Of a DNA stretch of 64,000 bases, positions 2,182 through 55,210 are shown piece by piece. The DNA is from Nitrosopumilus sp. (GTDB taxonomy: Archaea; Thermoproteota; Nitrososphaeria; Nitrososphaerales; Nitrosopumilaceae), in contig OZ242220.1 of the NCBI GenBank assembly GCA_965206745.1, positions 1-64,000 on the forward strand, given 5' to 3'. Position 1 is the first letter of the stretch. Each line of letters begins with the position of its first letter. The translations under genes and the position numbers were made by a program. A model generated the notes under the pieces. That model did not search any database and was not told the DNA's origin. It saw nothing but the letters and a program-made list of their open reading frames with translations.

Positions 2182-2481
2182 ATGCCAGTAGGAATTATTC
2201 CAGACATCAGCGAACAAATGTGTATCGGATGCGCACTATGTGTAGAAATCTGTACCACACTTGGACCAGATGTCCTCAGAGTAAAACCAGTTGAAGGCTG
2301 GAAGAGAGGTAAAGCATTTGTCTTTTATCCAGAAAGATGTATTTCTGATGGTGCATGCATTGGTGTATGCCCAACAAAAGCAATCTTTTGGATGCGACCA
2401 ATGGACTTTACAGTTGGACAACCAGTCCCACTCTACAAGAACTCAGTCTTCGTCAAAGGTTGGACTGAATTAATCGATTAG
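2182..2481 (+). CDS. 4Fe-4S dicluster ferredoxin
   Basis: CIGCALCVEIC and CISDGACIGVCP motifs. Confidence 0.92.
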   Translation: MPVGIIPDISEQMCIGCALCVEICTTLGPDVLRVKPVEGWKRGKAFVFYPERCISDGACIGVCPTKAIFWMRPMDFTVGQPVPLYKNSVFVKGWTELID

Positions 2482-2541
2482 ATTAGTTCGTCAATTTTTA
2501 ATTTCTTTTTATTATTTTAAATTTTCAAAGCACCTGTTGCA

Positions 2542-2635
2542 TCATCTCTGATTAGGTTTTTCTTTGACCAGAATAGCTGCAAGGAATATTCCCTGGAATA
2601 ATGAGTAGATGATCAATTCAGGATGTTTCCAGATG
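2542..2635 (-). pseudogene. 3' half of small membrane protein gene split by islet 1
   Basis: Reads IWKHPELIIYSLFQGIFLAAILVKEKPNQR*, in frame with the 5' half at 4010-4176 across a TTCCAGATG duplication. Confidence 0.6.
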
Positions 2636-2822
2636 TAACAACAGTGATTGCTACAACACTAAACATTGCTAGAAGAAGTTTCTGGCTTTTTTGTATAGTC
2701 ATTGTACTATACAGAACTAATTTCTTTAAAGCGTTTGATTCAATTCTGATAAAACCAAAAAATATTAAAGTGAATTTTTTTGTCTGTTTCTTAATTTCAC
2801 ATCTCATAAAAATTCAATGGAA

Positions 2823-3023
2823 TTAGGGTTTGTAGTTTATCAATAGTAATAATGAATACAAGATAAAAATACATACATAATAAATGATGGAATGTCTTTC
2901 TAACTTGTTTAAATTTCTGACTTGCTGGATAAAAAACCAGATTCCAAATAATGTAAAAATAACAGGAATGCCTAGACAGTAAAAATAATAATCACTTATC
3001 TTAGAGTTTAATGCCTGAACCAA
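2823..3023 (-). CDS. Small hypothetical membrane protein (islet 1)
   Basis: Two hydrophobic stretches; very AT-rich, so may be spurious. Confidence 0.35.
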   Translation of the reverse strand: MVQALNSKISDYYFYCLGIPVIFTLFGIWFFIQQVRNLNKLERHSIIYYVCIFILYSLLLLINYKP

Positions 3024-3264
3024 TCAATATTGAAATAGATAAGAATGTAATAGTAATTATTAGCAACACAAAACAACTAAAATCTAAATTGATATTCTAC
3101 CAACTAATTTGTGTATGTGGTATTGATTTTATGATATGTGATGAGATATTAAAATTTTATAAAATAATTCTGTCTTTATTTTCTAAATGAAGAATCCTAC
3201 TCGTTTTTTCCTAAACATCTATCAAACAATGATTTTGGATTAAGTTTGTAATTGCAAATAATTT

Positions 3265-3543
3265 CTATGTTAAAATCTTCTTCATAATATCTACATATCC
3301 ATCTGGACGTCTACCTCTAGTTTCTGGCATGTCTCTTAAATTACAAATTACTTCTGCAATATCTTTAATATTGTTTTTTATTTGATCTGAGTATGGTAAA
3401 TTTTTTAAAATTTTGTCAACTTCATCCATACCATACCATCCATTTTGCATAATCTCGACAAAAAATATTCTAGCCAAATGTTCTCTTTCATCGGCATGCA
3501 TAGTGGCTGGATTAATATGAACACTTTTGATTTTCTCTGTCAT
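3265..3543 (-). CDS. Hypothetical protein (islet 1)
   Basis: Likely start MTEKIK at 3543; the longer ORF upstream runs through the hairpin region. Confidence 0.5.
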   Translation of the reverse strand: MTEKIKSVHINPATMHADEREHLARIFFVEIMQNGWYGMDEVDKILKNLPYSDQIKNNIKDIAEVICNLRDMPETRGRRPDGYVDIMKKILT

Positions 3544-3679
3544 TTTTTTAACGTCCAATAGTTTTATTGATGGTTTACTGTATTTATCCATATTGCATAA
3601 AATCACTAAAGATAAATGATTTACAACAAAGATCACTCTTGAATCATTATCATAGCTTGATAGATTTCTCTTTTCAAAG

Positions 3680-3715
3680 TCATGTTTGATGGGGGACTGA
3701 ACCTGGATATCAAGC
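3680..3715 (+). repeat. 36-bp inverted dispersed repeat matching 51298-51333 in the antiporter gene (35/36)
   Basis: tcatgtttga[t/c]gggggactgaacctggatatcaagc, compared base by base. Confidence 0.9.
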
Positions 3716-3721
3716 GAATGT

Positions 3722-3907
3722 TCATACATGTATTGCTCTATCTGGAAAGAGTTTTGTAAATTCATCTATGGCAGAATCAATTTTAGATAATGCTTCCTCT
3801 TTGGTATTTCCATACACAGCAATTTCGGGACTCAAGCTACATTTTACCATATATCCGTCACTCAATTTTTTGATATGGTATGTAATGCCATCATATACGT
3901 TGGACAT
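3722..3907 (-). CDS. HicB-like (UPF0150 fold) antitoxin domain, orphan
   Basis: DGYMVKC..PEIAVYGNTKEEALSKIDSAI pattern typical of the HicB N-terminal domain. Confidence 0.7.
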   Translation of the reverse strand: MSNVYDGITYHIKKLSDGYMVKCSLSPEIAVYGNTKEEALSKIDSAIDEFTKLFPDRAIHV

Positions 3908-4009
3908 GGTTCAACATCATGATGCTCTCGTATGACTCTTTATTATAGCCTAGAATCAAATTATCAGAATTAATAATTAACAGAAACTACACAGTACAAT
4001 TACAACAGG

Positions 4010-4176
4010 TTCCAGATGAAGGGGTTTTTGAATTCAGAGATCCAGATCTCATCATGGACTATCACAATTGGATCCGGAAAAGAATCCTCGTATGTATCAT
4101 CTGAGTTCAATGTCCATTCCTCCGTATAAAACAACCCCAAGAGTGTCAGGATTGTAAAAAATGAGGCTACTGACAA
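4010..4176 (-). pseudogene. 5' half of small membrane protein gene split by islet 1
   Basis: TTG start; SVASFFTILTLLGLFYTEEW...KNPFIW is open up to the duplicated 9-mer. Confidence 0.6.
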
Positions 4177-4238
4177 AATATCATTCCACAGGCATGGTTT
4201 AGATGATTAAATACTTGGGATTATTTGTAATAGTGGAT

Positions 4239-5219
4239 ATGACCAAAACAATTTTTTTCAGTTTACAAAAAAAGTTGCTGATATTGGTCTTGTCTGCAAC
4301 CCTGACTTCAATTTCAATTACCACCATTCTGTTCCTAAATTTTGACAACATACCAATTTTTGAACTGCAGGAAAATATCGTGTGGATCGGGATAACATTG
4401 ATGATTGGGTTGAGCATTCTGACATATTTTCTTTCAAAGCGTCTGTCTGAACCAATCACGAAACTTGGCGATGCGGCAAATAAAATTTCGCAGGGGGACT
4501 TTAGTGTTAGAACCAACATAAAGTCACACGATGAGATAGGACGCCTGTCTTCATCTTTTGATTCAATGGCACAAAAATTGCAGGAATCGCTATTTGAGAT
4601 CAAAGAAAAGGAAGAGGTCATCAAGCAGCAAGAAGATATCTTGCTAAAGTTTTCTCAGCAGGTTCAAAATGACTGTGTTGGAGTTATTGACATGAAGGAT
4701 TCCACCAAGATTTCAAGCAAACTATCAGACGAGAGCATTACAAAGCTGTATGAGATTTTCCTGAATTTTATGGCAAAGATTGTACATAATCACAACGGCG
4801 AGGTGGTAAAGAACATCGGGGATGCCCTGATGTTCAGGTTTCCAAATGTTGATCCCGATGATACCGTGGCAATGAAGAATATCCTGGAATGCTGCCTGTC
4901 AATGATTGATTCCCATGATGCGCTAAAAGAACAGCTGGATGCAGAAAACATGCCAGAGTTGGATTACAAGATCAGCGCAACTTATGGCTCTGTAAAAATA
5001 GCTCAAAGCACAACCTCCAACACTTCAGATATTTTTGGGCCCACAGTAAACAGATGCTTCAAGATTAACTCACTCTGTCCAAGAAACGGCGTGGTGATTG
5101 GAATTAATTTGTATGAGATTCTAAAGGGTTTTGACGAATACGAGTTTACGAAATTTACATCAAATGAGATGGAAAAAAAATACGGCTATAGTATTTTTGA
5201 AGTTAAAAGAAAGGGATGA
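4239..5219 (+). CDS. Membrane-bound class III adenylate cyclase with HAMP domain
   Basis: 2 TM, HAMP (PITKL...DEIGRLSSSFDSM), IDMKDST, KNIGDA, DIFGPTVN; K/D pair suggests ATP specificity. Confidence 0.88.
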   Translation: MTKTIFFSLQKKLLILVLSATLTSISITTILFLNFDNIPIFELQENIVWIGITLMIGLSILTYFLSKRLSEPITKLGDAANKISQGDFSVRTNIKSHDEIGRLSSSFDSMAQKLQESLFEIKEKEEVIKQQEDILLKFSQQVQNDCVGVIDMKDSTKISSKLSDESITKLYEIFLNFMAKIVHNHNGEVVKNIGDALMFRFPNVDPDDTVAMKNILECCLSMIDSHDALKEQLDAENMPELDYKISATYGSVKIAQSTTSNTSDIFGPTVNRCFKINSLCPRNGVVIGINLYEILKGFDEYEFTKFTSNEMEKKYGYSIFEVKRKG

Positions 5220-33689: not shown

Positions 33690-34150
33690 ATGTTGACAGT
33701 TGAAATGATCCCAGAATATTTGTTAACTAGGTGGTTTGTTAATATTGACTGCACAAGCCACGCCTAGCCCATATTCTGTTATTAACAACCATTCCAGAAT
33801 TGGCCCCTCCTGAATAGGATATTTCGTGCCTGGAGTGGAAATAAAGGGGTCAAAATGGAGATATTCACAGTGTTAACACCCATCTTAACGCCTGGAGTGG
33901 AAATAAAGGGGTCAAAATGGGCTTTTTTCAGCATATCTTAACACCAAATTAACAACCATGTTAACCTGTTCCACATGCAGGAACAAACCCACACACCAGT
34001 ATTTCCACTCTATGTTTTTTTTAATTTTTTTTAATAGAAAATCTAAAACTAAGTAAAAATAATTAATTACAAACTAAACTAGTATTACTATTCTATTCTA
34101 TACTCTCTTAATTGAGGTGTAGTTGTTGATATTGACTGGAAATGAAGGTG
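33690..34150. other. Replication origin oriC: ORB repeats plus AT-rich unwinding element
   Basis: Perfect 31-bp direct repeat GCCTGGAGTGGAAATAAAGGGGTCAAAATGG at 33828-33858 and 33890-33920; inverted ATTTCCACTC at 34001; ACTGGAAAT at ~34135; AT tract 34010-34110; directly upstream of cdc6. Confidence 0.85.
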
Positions 34151-34151
34151 T

Positions 34152-35360
34152 GTGAGTATGTCTGACCCGATAGATGACTTGCTTGATGCGGCAGAATCTG
34201 GAAGATCAATTATCAAAAATCGCGACGTTCTTCATTTTACATACATTCCAAGTGTCATTTTACATAGAAAATCCGAACAAGAAAAAGTTACCCAGTCCCT
34301 CTTGCCAATCCTAAAACAATCAAGGCCCTCAAACCTCCTAGTTTATGGCAAGCCTGGAACTGGCAAAACACTGGTCGTAAAAAAAGTGCTCTCCAAGATC
34401 CAGGAGAGGGTTGAGAAATCAAAATTTCCGATAAAACTTGTATATTCCAACTCAAAAAATGAGACCACATTATACGGGCTACTAGTCAGCCTAGGCAGGC
34501 AACTGGGCCTGGAACAGGACGAACTGCCCACAACCGGACTTGCCATCAGCGAGGTCTTCAAGAGACTCCTAGCCAAGATTGAGGAGGAAGAACTTAATGC
34601 AGTTTTTGTAATTGATGAGATTGATTACCTTGCACAGCTAGTAGCAAAAACTGGCAAGGACATCCTGTACCAACTGACAAGGGCAAACGAGCAGCTAAAA
34701 CAGGGCTCCCTGACCATGGTGGGGATATCAAATGATCTGACATTCAAAGAAAAACTGGATCCCAGGGTAATTAGCAGCCTGGGAGAGGAGGAGATTGTAT
34801 TTACGAATTACAACGTCGAGCAGATAAAAAAAATTCTTGAGGAGAGAATTAGCGAATCCTTCATCGAAGGCTCTGTAGAGGAACCGGCCCTGAACCTCTG
34901 TGCGGCCCTTGCAGGAGGGGAACACGGCGATGCCAGAAGGGCCATTGACCTGCTTCGCGTATCAGGCGAACTGGCCGAGAGACAGCAATCTGAAAAGGTC
35001 ACAAATAATCATGTCAGGGATGCGGCCATGAAAATTGAAGAGAACAAGGAGGAGGCCTCCCTCAAATCATATCCGCTTCATGAAAAACTGGTGATTATAG
35101 CCATAATGAAGGCCAGCGGTTCTTCGACAGGCGAGATTTATTCCTCCTACAAAAACCTCTGCAAGATGCTAAGCAAGGACGAACTTACCCAGAGAAGGAT
35201 TACACAGATGCTCGGTGAGATTGAGTTGTCAGGGATTATCTCCGGAAGGCTTATCCATCAAGGCATTCATGGCAGGACAAAAAAATTCAAACTTACGATA
35301 TCATCTGAGATGATAAAAAAATCATTCCAAGATGACCTAAGTCTGCAAGACATTGTCTAA
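34152..35360 (+). CDS. cdc6: Orc1/Cdc6 replication initiator
   Basis: YGKPGTGKT, VIDEID, DPRVISSL, HGDARRAIDLLR, C-terminal wH. Confidence 0.96.
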   Translation: MSMSDPIDDLLDAAESGRSIIKNRDVLHFTYIPSVILHRKSEQEKVTQSLLPILKQSRPSNLLVYGKPGTGKTLVVKKVLSKIQERVEKSKFPIKLVYSNSKNETTLYGLLVSLGRQLGLEQDELPTTGLAISEVFKRLLAKIEEEELNAVFVIDEIDYLAQLVAKTGKDILYQLTRANEQLKQGSLTMVGISNDLTFKEKLDPRVISSLGEEEIVFTNYNVEQIKKILEERISESFIEGSVEEPALNLCAALAGGEHGDARRAIDLLRVSGELAERQQSEKVTNNHVRDAAMKIEENKEEASLKSYPLHEKLVIIAIMKASGSSTGEIYSSYKNLCKMLSKDELTQRRITQMLGEIELSGIISGRLIHQGIHGRTKKFKLTISSEMIKKSFQDDLSLQDIV

Positions 35361-39975: not shown

Positions 39976-41646
39976 TTGAACAAAGCGTACCTGATCCCCC
40001 TTATTTCATTATTGATAGTCGGTCTTGGCAACAACGCAGTTGCCCAATCTGATGACAAATTAGTAGTGCTGGAAACAGACCTTGGAACCATCGTAATGGA
40101 ATTCTTTACTGACGATGCACCAAACCATGTTGATAATTTCGTCGGCTTGGCAGAATCGGGATTTTATGATGGAGTGGTGTTTCATAGAATTATTCCAGGG
40201 TTTATGATCCAAGGTGGTGATCCTAACACGGTTAGTGGTGATCCCAACACCTGGGGGTCCGGCGGTCCTGGCACGAATGTGGATGCCGAATTCAATACAA
40301 TAAAGCATAATCGCGGAATATTATCGATGGCAAGATCTGCTGATCCTAACAGTGGAGGTTCACAGTTTTTCATTGTTCATAAAGATTCTAACTTTTTAGA
40401 TGAACAGTATACGGTGTTTGGAAGGATTGCAACTGAGGAGAGCTTTGAGACTTTGGATAAAATTGCATCAGTGGAAACTGGCAGCGGGGACAAGCCGACA
40501 GATCCTGAAAAAGTCAGAATAACAAAGGCTATGGCAGTAAACCGTTCTGAAGTTTCAAATCTTCTTGAATTGTCAGAACCTGAACGCCTCGAATCTATGA
40601 CACCTCCTTTAACTGACAATCGAGAACTTGAAAGTGATGAGCTTGGAATTACATTTAGCATACCTGAGGGCTGGACACTGCAAGAATTAGAAAAAACCGC
40701 AGATGACTCCCCTGACCTTGTCGCAATCGGACCAAAGATGGGTGCAGTGAATCCGAACATCTCCTTAACGATACAAAATACCGATCAAAGAACCTTTGAT
40801 GAAATAGTAGCTGAAAAAACTAGCATGTTGGAAGAACTTGCAGCATCTGAAAATTTGGAAATAATTTCACAGGATTGGGCCTCTATCAATGGAACAGATG
40901 CATTTGTAACTGATGCAAAAGGAGTATTTTCCACTGAGGTTGGAGATGTGGACGTACAATTTAGAGAGGTTGTATTTCATAGTCCTGAAAAATACTATGT
41001 CATTGTATATGCAAATGGTTTAGATGATTTTGCCTCAGAACTGCCTAGATTTGAAGAAACGTTAAACTCCTTTGAAATACTAGACTCTTCATCCTCATCT
41101 TCTGATAAACTAGACTCTTCATCCTCATCTTCTGATAAACTAGACTCTTCATCCTCATCTTCTGATAAACTAGACTCTTCATCCTCATCTTCTGATAAAC
41201 TAGGCGACTACAGACAAACAGGCAACGACACTGGCGCCTTTGAGCAAGTAGTAGAAGTTCCTGATGAATCCTCAGAAGGGGATGGGGGCTGTTTGATAGC
41301 AACAGCCACATTTGGCTCAGAACTTGCACCCCAAGTTCAACAGCTCCGTGAGATTCGAGATAATATTATTCTGTCAACTGAATCCGGAACTGCTTTTATG
41401 AGTGGATTTAACCAGATCTACTATTCCTTTTCGCCCATAATTGCTGACTTGGAACGGGAGAACCCACTTTTCAAGGAAGCCGTTAAACTCTCAATCACCC
41501 CAATGTTGTCCACACTATCAATTCTAAACCATGTCGAGATTAATTCCGAATCTGAAATGCTATCTTATGGAATTGGAATAATTTTGATGAATCTTGGAAT
41601 TTATTTTGCCGTACCTGCAGTTGTCATTTACAAGATTAGAAAATAA
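39976..41646 (+). CDS. Exported cyclophilin PPIase + PsbP-like domain + CFI-box-type C-terminal anchor
   Basis: FHRIIPGFMIQGGDP, LSMAR, GSQFFI, YTVFG; FSIPEGW; GGCLIATATFGSE and C-terminal TM. Confidence 0.88.
   Translation: MNKAYLIPLISLLIVGLGNNAVAQSDDKLVVLETDLGTIVMEFFTDDAPNHVDNFVGLAESGFYDGVVFHRIIPGFMIQGGDPNTVSGDPNTWGSGGPGTNVDAEFNTIKHNRGILSMARSADPNSGGSQFFIVHKDSNFLDEQYTVFGRIATEESFETLDKIASVETGSGDKPTDPEKVRITKAMAVNRSEVSNLLELSEPERLESMTPPLTDNRELESDELGITFSIPEGWTLQELEKTADDSPDLVAIGPKMGAVNPNISLTIQNTDQRTFDEIVAEKTSMLEELAASENLEIISQDWASINGTDAFVTDAKGVFSTEVGDVDVQFREVVFHSPEKYYVIVYANGLDDFASELPRFEETLNSFEILDSSSSSSDKLDSSSSSSDKLDSSSSSSDKLDSSSSSSDKLGDYRQTGNDTGAFEQVVEVPDESSEGDGGCLIATATFGSELAPQVQQLREIRDNIILSTESGTAFMSGFNQIYYSFSPIIADLERENPLFKEAVKLSITPMLSTLSILNHVEINSESEMLSYGIGIILMNLGIYFAVPAVVIYKIRK
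41079..41203 (+). repeat. 30-bp perfect tandem repeat x4 encoding LDSSSSSSDK
   Basis: actagactcttcatcctcatcttctgataa at 41079, 41109, 41139, 41169. Confidence 0.95.
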
Positions 41647-50224: not shown

Positions 50225-51691
50225 CTATTCCTTTTGGGACTCCTTGTCCTTGATGAATCCGCCCCCGACAGTATCGCCTAGATCTTCGGATGTTTTCTCT
50301 GCCGCAGCCGAATCCTCCTTGGGTTCCTCTGCGGGCTTTACAAATCCCCCCTCAACGGATTCTGGCGGAGGGATCTTTTTTGATCTTCCCAGTCCGATCG
50401 TGGTAATAATCACTGATGACAAGATAATAAAGAATATGAGCTGTGGGTATGCATCCGCATTTGGCAATCCCAAGGTAATCGGATATGTTGCAAGGACTGC
50501 CGCAGCCAGGCCCCTTGGTATCATGGAGTTTGTTACTGCCCTATCCAAAAGCGAGAATCTTTTTGTCAATGTTATCTTGCCGACAAACAATCTGCCAAAG
50601 TAGACGGCAACCGTAATGAGGACACCAAACACAAGATACTCTATCTGTCCAAAACTTGCCAGCAAGCCAACAAACACAAAGAAGAACGATCTTACCAAAA
50701 ATGTCAACTGATTGTGCGTGGGATCATCCATCTCAATCCTTGGGAGTTTGAATCGTAGTACGCGTGAGAGATGATTCTTGTTTCCAATCATCAGACCAAA
50801 CACCAGGGCAGTCAGTGCGCCGGACTCTCCAAATGAATTTGCCAAAAAGAACAGGACAAACAGGATTCCCAGTGTAAGCATGTATGCGTGTTGGGCATTG
50901 CCGAGCTTTGTCGATACATACATCCAGGGAATTCCCACCCCAAACCCAAGCACCAGTCCAACTATGACTGCTCTGCCAAGGGTCTCTTGCAGTGTCTGAA
51001 TATCAAAATGCCCGGCCAGTATTGCCTCAAACAGAATAAACGCAATAATTGTGGCCAAAATATCAGTTAATGCAGATTCAAAACTCAGCATCGACTTGGT
51101 CTCTTCTGAAATTTTGATGTTTCTTACCAGTCCAAACACGATCGCAGAACTGCTTCCCCCGACAATGGATCCCAGCAGAATACTCTCCAACCACAGCCAT
51201 CCTAATGCAAAGTGGGCGGCAAGTGAAATCATCACAACTGATAAAATAAAGCCAAGAATTGCAAGCGTAAATGAAAAGTGTGCAGTCTTCAAAACATGCT
51301 TGATATCCAGGTTCAGTCCCCCGTCAAACATGATGATAATCAACGCAAGGGCTGCAAAGTATGGTACCACCTGAATTACAGCTGCGGGCTGGATAATTCC
51401 AAATATGGGCCCGATAATCACGCCAAGAATCATTAGAAAAGCTACATCCGGAATCCCCGTTTTTTTGAAGAATGCCTCGCCGGCTACCCCTAGAAAGATC
51501 ACCACACCTGCAGCAAGCAGTATCACGTGAGCTTCGGCAATGGGCCCGTCATGGATAGAGAGCGTTCCAATCGAACTTTGCAACTCTGCAACTTTATCAA
51601 AAATCATACTCGAGTCAAAATCAGACAAGGGAAGCGAATCCCACGTCTGGCCGTCAAACAAATTCAAAATGGACAAAATTATGGGATTCAT
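50225..51691 (-). CDS. Cation:proton antiporter, CPA1/NhaP family
   Basis: IPDVAFLMILGVIIGP, MFDGGLNL, FESALTD, FFFVFVG, PRGLAAAVLA. Confidence 0.9.
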   Translation of the reverse strand: MNPIILSILNLFDGQTWDSLPLSDFDSSMIFDKVAELQSSIGTLSIHDGPIAEAHVILLAAGVVIFLGVAGEAFFKKTGIPDVAFLMILGVIIGPIFGIIQPAAVIQVVPYFAALALIIIMFDGGLNLDIKHVLKTAHFSFTLAILGFILSVVMISLAAHFALGWLWLESILLGSIVGGSSSAIVFGLVRNIKISEETKSMLSFESALTDILATIIAFILFEAILAGHFDIQTLQETLGRAVIVGLVLGFGVGIPWMYVSTKLGNAQHAYMLTLGILFVLFFLANSFGESGALTALVFGLMIGNKNHLSRVLRFKLPRIEMDDPTHNQLTFLVRSFFFVFVGLLASFGQIEYLVFGVLITVAVYFGRLFVGKITLTKRFSLLDRAVTNSMIPRGLAAAVLATYPITLGLPNADAYPQLIFFIILSSVIITTIGLGRSKKIPPPESVEGGFVKPAEEPKEDSAAAEKTSEDLGDTVGGGFIKDKESQKE

Positions 51692-55052: not shown

Positions 55053-55113
55053 ATCAAAATCATTCTATAGTGAATACAAATTTTAAAAAATAAACAAATA
55101 TACTAATTTACTA

Positions 55114-55181
55114 TATATGGTAATTAACCATATATAGTAATTAACCATATATAGTAATTAACCATATATAGTAATTAACTA
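55114..55181. repeat. 17-bp quasi-palindromic tandem repeat x4 (TATATAGTAATTAACCA)
   Basis: Units at 55114, 55131, 55148, 55165. Confidence 0.9.
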
Positions 55182-55210
55182 TATACTAACCAAGTATATA
55201 GTGAGATAAG

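Follow-up and report, generated by a model that had tools for sequence, protein, structure and literature searches.

Why should a 36-base piece from inside a Na+/H+ antiporter gene recur, inverted and almost unchanged, directly behind an orphan antitoxin-like gene of the same archaeal chromosome? The question arises in a stretch of 64,000 nucleotides from a Nitrosopumilus genome, which was analysed as a whole and is called the window here. A first-pass annotation, made from the letters alone, had offered three answers: a spacer-length, self-targeting guide or antisense RNA, the att core of an element that integrates in the antiporter gene, and a captured repair template. Its fall-back was a one-off capture. 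Below we follow the copy from its donor to the islet in which it lies, and then weigh how it may have come there.

The repeat and its donor gene

A pattern search and the reading of both places confirmed the repeat. Positions 3680-3715 of the window (+ strand) and the minus strand of 51298-51333 agree in 35 of 36 bases, and the number of matches expected by chance, from 100 dinucleotide shuffles of the window, was 0.00. The repeat is the best long-range inverted repeat in the 64-kb window, with 47,582 bases separating the two inverted copies. Within its own genome (1,861,144 bases) the 36-mer is found twice, once in the islet described below and once in the antiporter gene.

The donor stretch (51298-51333, minus strand) is part of an intact gene for a 488-aa Na+/H+ exchanger (50225-51691, minus strand; Pfam Na_H_Exchanger, E 1.4e-37). 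The islet copy (3680-3715) carries the antiporter coding strand on the + strand of the window. It takes in two bases of Ile120, the codons Met121 to Lys131, and one base of His132, out of 488 codons. As the first-pass annotation had read it, this stretch encodes MFDGGLNLDIK (M121-K131), and the single mismatch is a silent third position, Asp123 being GAT in the islet and GAC in the gene.

The copy has sharp edges. A BLAST match widens to 3680-3722 against 51293-51333, with 93% identity over 43 columns and a 2-base gap, and the flanks of the two loci are unrelated, with 10 of 40 bases identical on the left and 12 of 40 on the right. Because the mismatch falls at the 11th base, the longest exact stretch common to the islet and the donor locus is 25 bases. 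In congener orthologues, the corresponding antiporter stretches match the islet copy at just 25 to 34 of the 36 bases (29 top-scoring loci read), therefore the donor was the own lineage or a very near one. At Asp123, the codon is GAT in 27 of the 29 orthologues read, as in the islet copy. This would fit a copy that predates a T-to-C change in the resident gene, a donor in a sister strain, or a later mutation of the copy. The exact 36-mer had 0 matches in viral contigs and 0 in species-representative contigs, collections from which its own genome was possibly left out. We conclude that the islet copy of the antiporter piece is real, single and recent.

Judging from sequence features, a replication origin likely lies between the two copies, at 33828-34110. 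Two perfect 31-base direct repeats, 62 bases apart (33828-33858 and 33890-33920, spanning 33828-33920), presumably resemble origin-recognition boxes. They are followed by a very AT-rich tract (33828-34110 with the repeats), directly upstream of an orc1/cdc6 gene (34152-35360; Cdc6_lid, Cdc6_C). The inversion of the copies around oriC, as originally proposed, fits this placement. Both copy sites lie the same way round with respect to fork movement, one on each side of the likely origin, and, as a speculation, a template switch between sister forks would fit.

A self-comparison of the genome, counted apart from one family of 36-base repeats at 1.49-1.54 Mb, yielded six pairs shorter than 70 bases, at least 93% identical, and more than 10 kb apart. 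These are the antiporter copy, a 31-base tRNA-Leu fragment, and four pairs that are wholly or mainly intergenic; in this genome-wide self-comparison, a distant copy of a protein-coding fragment was found in no other case. The tRNA-Leu fragment (G000:C1:1287023-1287053 versus 1822888-1822918, 30/31 identical) stands alone, 535 kb from the tRNA, and resembles the att relic that an integrated element would leave. Repeats of another kind were also observed in the window: at 55088-55189 a 17-base unit with internal palindromes occurs about five times in an AT-rich spacer, and at 41068-41217 there are four copies of a 30-base tandem repeat.

A foreign islet with a strain-specific block

The copy lies in an AT-rich islet (approximately 2550-4200), with a GC content of 0.23-0.35 compared to 0.37-0.46 in the flanks. 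Its neighbours are a ferredoxin gene on one side and a HAMP/cyclase gene on the other. The earlier description of the islet as foreign is supported. The spot is variable, because the congener G017 holds a 204-aa gene in the islet's place. Behind the HicB-like gene, which is read from the minus strand, come first 6 bases, next the 36-mer, then about 120 bases and finally a 97-aa gene. The 6-nt gap noticed before between the copy and the HicB-like stop is indeed there: the stop codon occupies 3722-3724, and the 6-base spacer before it (3716-3722, + strand) belongs to sequence that a sister strain shares from 3716 rightwards.

The arrangement around the 36-mer is not conserved. In a search of the 150 other genus genomes, the islet DNA (3265-3910) turned up in none, the remaining matches being antiporter genes or a gene of the congener G014, and a linkage of hairpin and HicB-like gene was likewise seen in 0/150. 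Metagenomes gave the same result for the four closest of 17 loci with HicB-like relatives, at which the slot holds the partner gene described below or another gene, and no antiporter piece.

The 97-aa gene (3265-3558, minus strand) is of a kind carried by mobile elements, and its TTG start at 3558 was set from the 98-aa relatives P0004 and P0005. A frame of 166 aa is on record here (3265-3765, minus strand) and runs through the 36-mer. With relatives of 98 aa, it is probably over-extended by 69 codons. The sole relative in the genus is in G014, approximately 500 bases from the gene of a 418-aa tyrosine integrase (PHROG integrase E 2.5e-24); this region also contains a duplicated fragment of the integrase, next to a tRNA-Ser. 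Homology to G014 comprises the 97-aa gene and about 45 upstream bases, and stops well short of the 36-mer. Relatives of the 97-aa protein were found neither in genome contigs, searched with the single protein, nor in viral contigs, searched with the alignment. The alignment search of genome contigs returned three loci; in the best one, the encoded frames are identical to those of the G014 copy. Two repeats were also seen around the G014 integrase (L094/L095, G014:C1:943950-956826): an inverted one of 532 bases (91%) and a direct one of 276 bases, the latter duplicating the 5' part of the integrase next to the tRNA-Ser. The pattern of these repeats suggests tandem or rearranged integrated elements.

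Public sequencing data made it possible to compare strains. Words of the window were contained in 16 public runs. Two of them, X1 and X2, come from one study and have 95% of the sampled words, and others, from a second study, have 23-29%, X3 and X4 being one sample there. Logan contigs of X1-X4, which are assembled contigs and not raw reads, were aligned to 2400-4400. The own-type sequence is spanned with 0 differences by an X1 contig of 1,256 bases (2557-3812) and an X2 contig of 1,200 bases (2557-3756); the own-type joint is bridged by X1 and X2 only, in one study that is possibly the source of the genome.

The contigs of X3 and X4 (depth 24 and 40) represent a sister strain. They agree with 3716-4024 (10 differences) and 3716-4128 (17 differences), and then run into 268 and 112 letters unlike the window, departing exactly at 3715|3716. 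The sister strain retains the HicB-like gene and the 6 bases past its stop. A left break of the same kind lies at 2607 in X1, X3 and X4; its edge is blurred by an 11-base match of the loose end, which continues to 2622. In addition, a minor contig of X2 (depth 69 versus 598) joins 2607 to 3716, with some letters in between. The contigs of X1-X4 delimit an AT-rich block of 1,108 bases (2608-3715), which is replaced by other sequence in the sister strain. From the breaks at 2607 and 3715|3716 it follows that the 36-mer forms the last 36 bases of this block. It is located at the exact breakpoint between strains.

No microhomology is found at the left joint. At the right joint, the ATGTT at 3718-3722 equals the five donor bases that come next after the copied piece, with a 2-base offset, and may be either microhomology or a prolongation of the copy. 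Further templated pieces were not found in 3500-3960, where the next best match was an AT-rich one of 18 bases (E 0.011). A second strain polymorphism was observed on the far side of the HicB-like gene, at 4065-4147, where a minor X2 contig (depth 27 versus 582) swaps 81 bases for 168 other letters.

The HicB-like gene and its empty partner slot

The gene beside the breakpoint (3722-3907, minus strand) encodes an orphan protein of 61 aa, for which a HicB-like nature had been proposed. No family of Pfam, NCBIfam or PHROG reaches threshold for this protein, and a sequence-profile search of the PDB with its alignment gave nothing meaningful. Relatives were detected in 26 of the 401 genomes of the family, its own genome counted. 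The structure predicted from an alignment of 20 relatives (pLDDT 78.3) has three strands and one long helix. Its top Foldseek matches are the HicB antitoxins 6hpb_B, 6u0i, 6g1n and 4p78, with prob 0.96-1.00 and TMq 0.61-0.67, at E values of only 0.06-0.4; dsRNA-binding domains are among the weak rows. The model corresponds to the N-terminal antitoxin domain only, and the C-terminal DNA-binding domain is absent from the 61-aa protein.

The neighbourhood of relatives points in the same direction as the fold. In two distant relatives, L063 and L065, the next gene passes Pfam HicA_toxin with 59.5 and 38 bits, and the L065 protein itself (28% identical) scores 26.4 bits for HicB_lk_antitox, with a cut-off of 27. 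At the level of predicted fold and gene neighbourhood, the label HicB-like seems fair. A search of species-representative genome contigs with the single protein found three distant bacterial loci, and viral contigs contained no relatives. For the subfamily P0002 (77-82% identical), all 151 genus genomes gave the own copy only.

Close relatives of the gene have a companion. In all six of the closest HicB-like loci readable in context (44-64% identity), namely L047, L048 and L049 from genomes and L066, L067 and L068 from metagenomes, a partner gene of 81-94 aa lies downstream of the stop; the relatives with 77-92% identity stand outside this count. In four of the six, the partner begins 26-33 bases past the HicB-like stop. 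At L047 its open frame begins 97 bases on, and at L049 the partner gene is frameshifted. A same-strand frame of the partner type was present downstream in 15 of the 18 HicB-like loci tested. At an E value of 0.001 or below, 13 proteins of the partner family were found in a collection of approximately 5.8 billion, and the family has no match in Pfam. Its members share a conserved LGF...SDAP...L(Q/E)H stretch, and the family may represent a divergent HicA-like toxin. At L048, L066 and L067 the pair adjoins Cys/His-rich frames of 376-410 aa that look like transposases, at L067 with one on each side.

Behind the HicB-like gene of the window this partner gene is missing, and the 1,108-base block fills the slot that the six closest relatives use for it. 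A profile of five partners, searched against the six frames of 2500-4250, revealed no significant remnant (best 0.5 bits). The orphan status claimed for the gene also holds in the genome as a whole, which has no HicA_toxin match and no match to the partner profile. Two candidate remnants were discarded. A minus-strand frame at 3715-3750 resembles the partner C-terminus (E 0.064 and 0.2, in tiny search spaces), a likeness put down to chance because the stretch overlaps the native HicB-like 3' end, common to L066. The frame of the 30-letter loose end at 3716, read as a basic partner-like N-terminus, was too short to count.

The toxin may have been lost at an earlier time, or it may never have been paired with this HicB-like subfamily: for the nearest relatives (77-92%), none of the 13 partner-family proteins lies on a contig of matching length. 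The genome has a second HicB-like paralogue, of 71 aa, outside the window (G000:C1:82066-82281, minus strand). Relatives in its subfamily precede a partner of 86-87 aa, and no such frame was found after it.

The predicted hairpin

A long imperfect hairpin had been described around the copy. Its stems stand, as the + strand RNA shows them in its minimum-energy fold (-18 kcal/mol). A special stability does not, on either strand: 32 of 200 shuffles folded as well as the + strand RNA (z -0.85) and 58 of 200 as well as the minus-strand RNA (-11.7 kcal/mol, z -0.54), and for the hairpin as DNA z was -0.50. The minus-strand fold is weaker because each G-U pair becomes an A-C mismatch there. In sense, the + strand RNA corresponds to the antiporter mRNA, and read-through from the HicB-like gene would yield the minus strand.

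The sole stem independent of the strand is the outer one of 8 bases, seen both in the fold and in an inverted-match test, in which 3655-3662 (+ strand) pairs with the last 8 bases of the copy (3708-3715). Among genomic 36-mers, 6% have an 8-base inverted match to their 60-base flanks; when random genomic ones are placed at the islet site, the share is 8%. The involvement of the terminal 8-mer is less common, with 0.8% of random placements at the site in a post hoc test. The inverted partner of the final 8 bases sits 45 bases upstream, and is not accounted for by the repair model set out below.

Origin of the copy

The 36-mer is probably an inert, one-off piece of filler DNA from the chromosome, made when a break beside the antitoxin gene healed with foreign DNA. 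The break would have arisen right behind the HicB-like gene, and would have been healed by illegitimate joining to approximately 1.1 kb of AT-rich mobile-element DNA. Into this joint, 36, perhaps 41, antiporter bases would have been copied or captured as a fragment, leaving the donor gene intact. The same event, or another at the same spot, would have removed whatever came after the antitoxin gene, which in relatives is the HicA-like toxin. The break-repair origin, be it by templated synthesis or by fragment capture, the former toxin gene, and the order of events are what we infer from the present arrangement; the antiporter copy probably has no function of its own.

We prefer filler DNA to a guide RNA or an integration site because the copy is located exactly at the seam of a strain-specific foreign patch. 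This choice is supported by the position of the copy at the breakpoint, by its sharp edges, and by a donor that is intact and a copy that is unique. Its weak points are the lack of a clean microhomology, the 8-base inverted match, the polarity of the alleles, and the reliance on contigs. The evidence leads to the fall-back of the first-pass annotation, a one-off capture, and nothing in it speaks for a captured repair template.

Could the copy act as an RNA instead? As had been pointed out, the orientation is right for it: a minus-strand read-through transcript would pair with the antiporter mRNA, possibly through 10 + 25 base pairs around one A-C mismatch. No terminator-like site was found after the HicB-like gene (0 found), and the likely promoter of the next gene, read from the sequence near 3583-3590, lies further downstream, therefore the copy would sit in the 3' tail of the HicB-like mRNA. 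An exapted antisense RNA, in which this tail pairs with the antiporter codons 121-131 and damps the antiporter, is nevertheless very unlikely. Its arrangement is conserved in no other genome searched, its hairpin does not rise above shuffles and is weaker on the transcribed strand, Rfam gives no match for the locus at E up to 1, and the sister strain exists without the piece. More doubtful again is the bolder version, an orphan antitoxin mRNA on a mobile islet that bears a captured 36-base antisense "spacer" against the Na+/H+ antiporter mRNA of the host. If it were true, mobile DNA could, by a route independent of CRISPR, bring an ion transporter of its host under programmable RNA control. 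For a spacer-like guide RNA bound by the HicB-fold protein, in a programmable self-targeting system, speak only the 36-base length and the neighbouring protein with its dsRBD-like fold. Against it, there is no repeat array around the 36-mer, Cas1 has no match in the genome (a control search was positive in 7 of 14 genomes), the instance is single, and the closest HicB-like relatives are paired with toxin-like genes, not RNAs; we give this proposal next to no credence. An assembly chimera or a decayed antiporter pseudogene is highly improbable as well. Short repeats can mislead assemblers, and the motif is conserved at the protein level. However, the Logan contigs of X1 and X2 cross both joints with 0 differences, so as far as contigs show the arrangement is no artefact, and a second recorded contig, of 2,312,944 bases, carries an identical 166-aa frame that runs across the piece. 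Logan-type assemblies presumably use a word length of 31; the longest shared exact stretch, of 25 bases, is shorter, therefore such a word graph should not be able to fuse the two loci. In a pseudogene, 97% identity inside would not go together with random sequence outside, and the decayed pseudogene was rejected on these sharp edges.

The position at the breakpoint is equally well explained by a relic of a mobile element. The element would have sat in the antiporter gene of this lineage or recombined with it, and would have kept a host piece of 36-43 bases at its end, after imprecise excision or as an att core. It would later have been joined beside the HicB-like gene. The copy stands at the very end of the foreign block, its GAT codon, as in 27 of 29 congeners, allows a donor other than the present chromosome, and an orphan att-like tRNA-Leu fragment of 31 bases is found elsewhere in the genome. 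In the available text of Krupovic et al. 2019 (PMC6563490), 68 defined thaumarchaeal sites comprise 39 tRNA genes, 15 intergenic sites and 14 3'-distal gene parts, so thaumarchaeal elements do use protein-coding genes (14/68), and the 36-43 bases of the copy fall within the 29-69 bp given there for crenarchaeal att sites. Yet the gene-targeting elements of that text use 3'-distal regions, and here the target is internal, at codon 121 of 488; the main text of PMC6563490, as available, does not contain the word "antiporter". No recombinase or integrase family was found in any islet frame (Pfam, NCBIfam, PHROG). The copy is single, and no direct repeats stand out around the block, the longest pairs in 2300-4500 (15-31 bases, 73-93%) being at no block edge. 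The gene segment is present in 104 of 120 congeners, and none of the matches listed suggests an antiporter split by an element. The one in G062 that ends inside the site belongs to a continuous frame of 453 aa, 67% identical to the window protein. In G014, the related element is next to a tRNA-Ser, and 410 kb separate it from the antiporter of that genome. The proposal of an att core in the antiporter gene is not borne out by these results, and an element relic in general, which needs more steps as well as features that were sought and not found, is unlikely.

Meaning and comparison with known systems

If filler DNA is the right reading, the locus is a natural record of the healing of a break in a marine ammonia-oxidising archaeon, with a joint that brings together foreign DNA, a probably lost toxin partner, and 36 bases from across the replication origin. 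For end-joining or template-switching repair in this archaeal group it could become a test case, since filler is well known in eukaryotes and little documented in archaea. There is no wider consequence unless the antisense reading is true. In addition, the analysis corrects an over-long gene call of 166 aa, and points to a small family of HicB-like proteins and partners without a Pfam match.

Compared to archaeal att sites in coding genes (PMC6563490, as far as its available text goes), the likeness lies in a short stretch of a host gene on mobile DNA, with an att-like length. Here, however, the copy is single and inverted, 47.6 kb away from the gene, with no integrase, an internal target, and no occupied site.

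With HicAB modules, the likeness is that the 61-aa protein models as the N-terminal fold of HicB, and that its relatives lie directly upstream of HicA or HicA-like genes. In contrast, the gene of the window has no toxin gene, its product has no C-terminal DNA-binding domain, and no family reaches threshold for it.

Filler DNA, made by synthesis-dependent end joining or by replication-based template switching, has been described mainly in eukaryotes. A narrow literature search, in sources available in part, found no archaeal case at a repair joint. The islet copy differs from such templated insertions in its host, an ammonia-oxidising archaeon, and in having no clear microhomology at the junction. 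It resembles the products of synthesis-dependent microhomology-mediated end joining and of FoSTeS/MMBIR-like switching in that tens of bases come from the same genome, the donor stays intact, the piece lies at the exact joint of a rearrangement with sharp edges, and inversion is possible.
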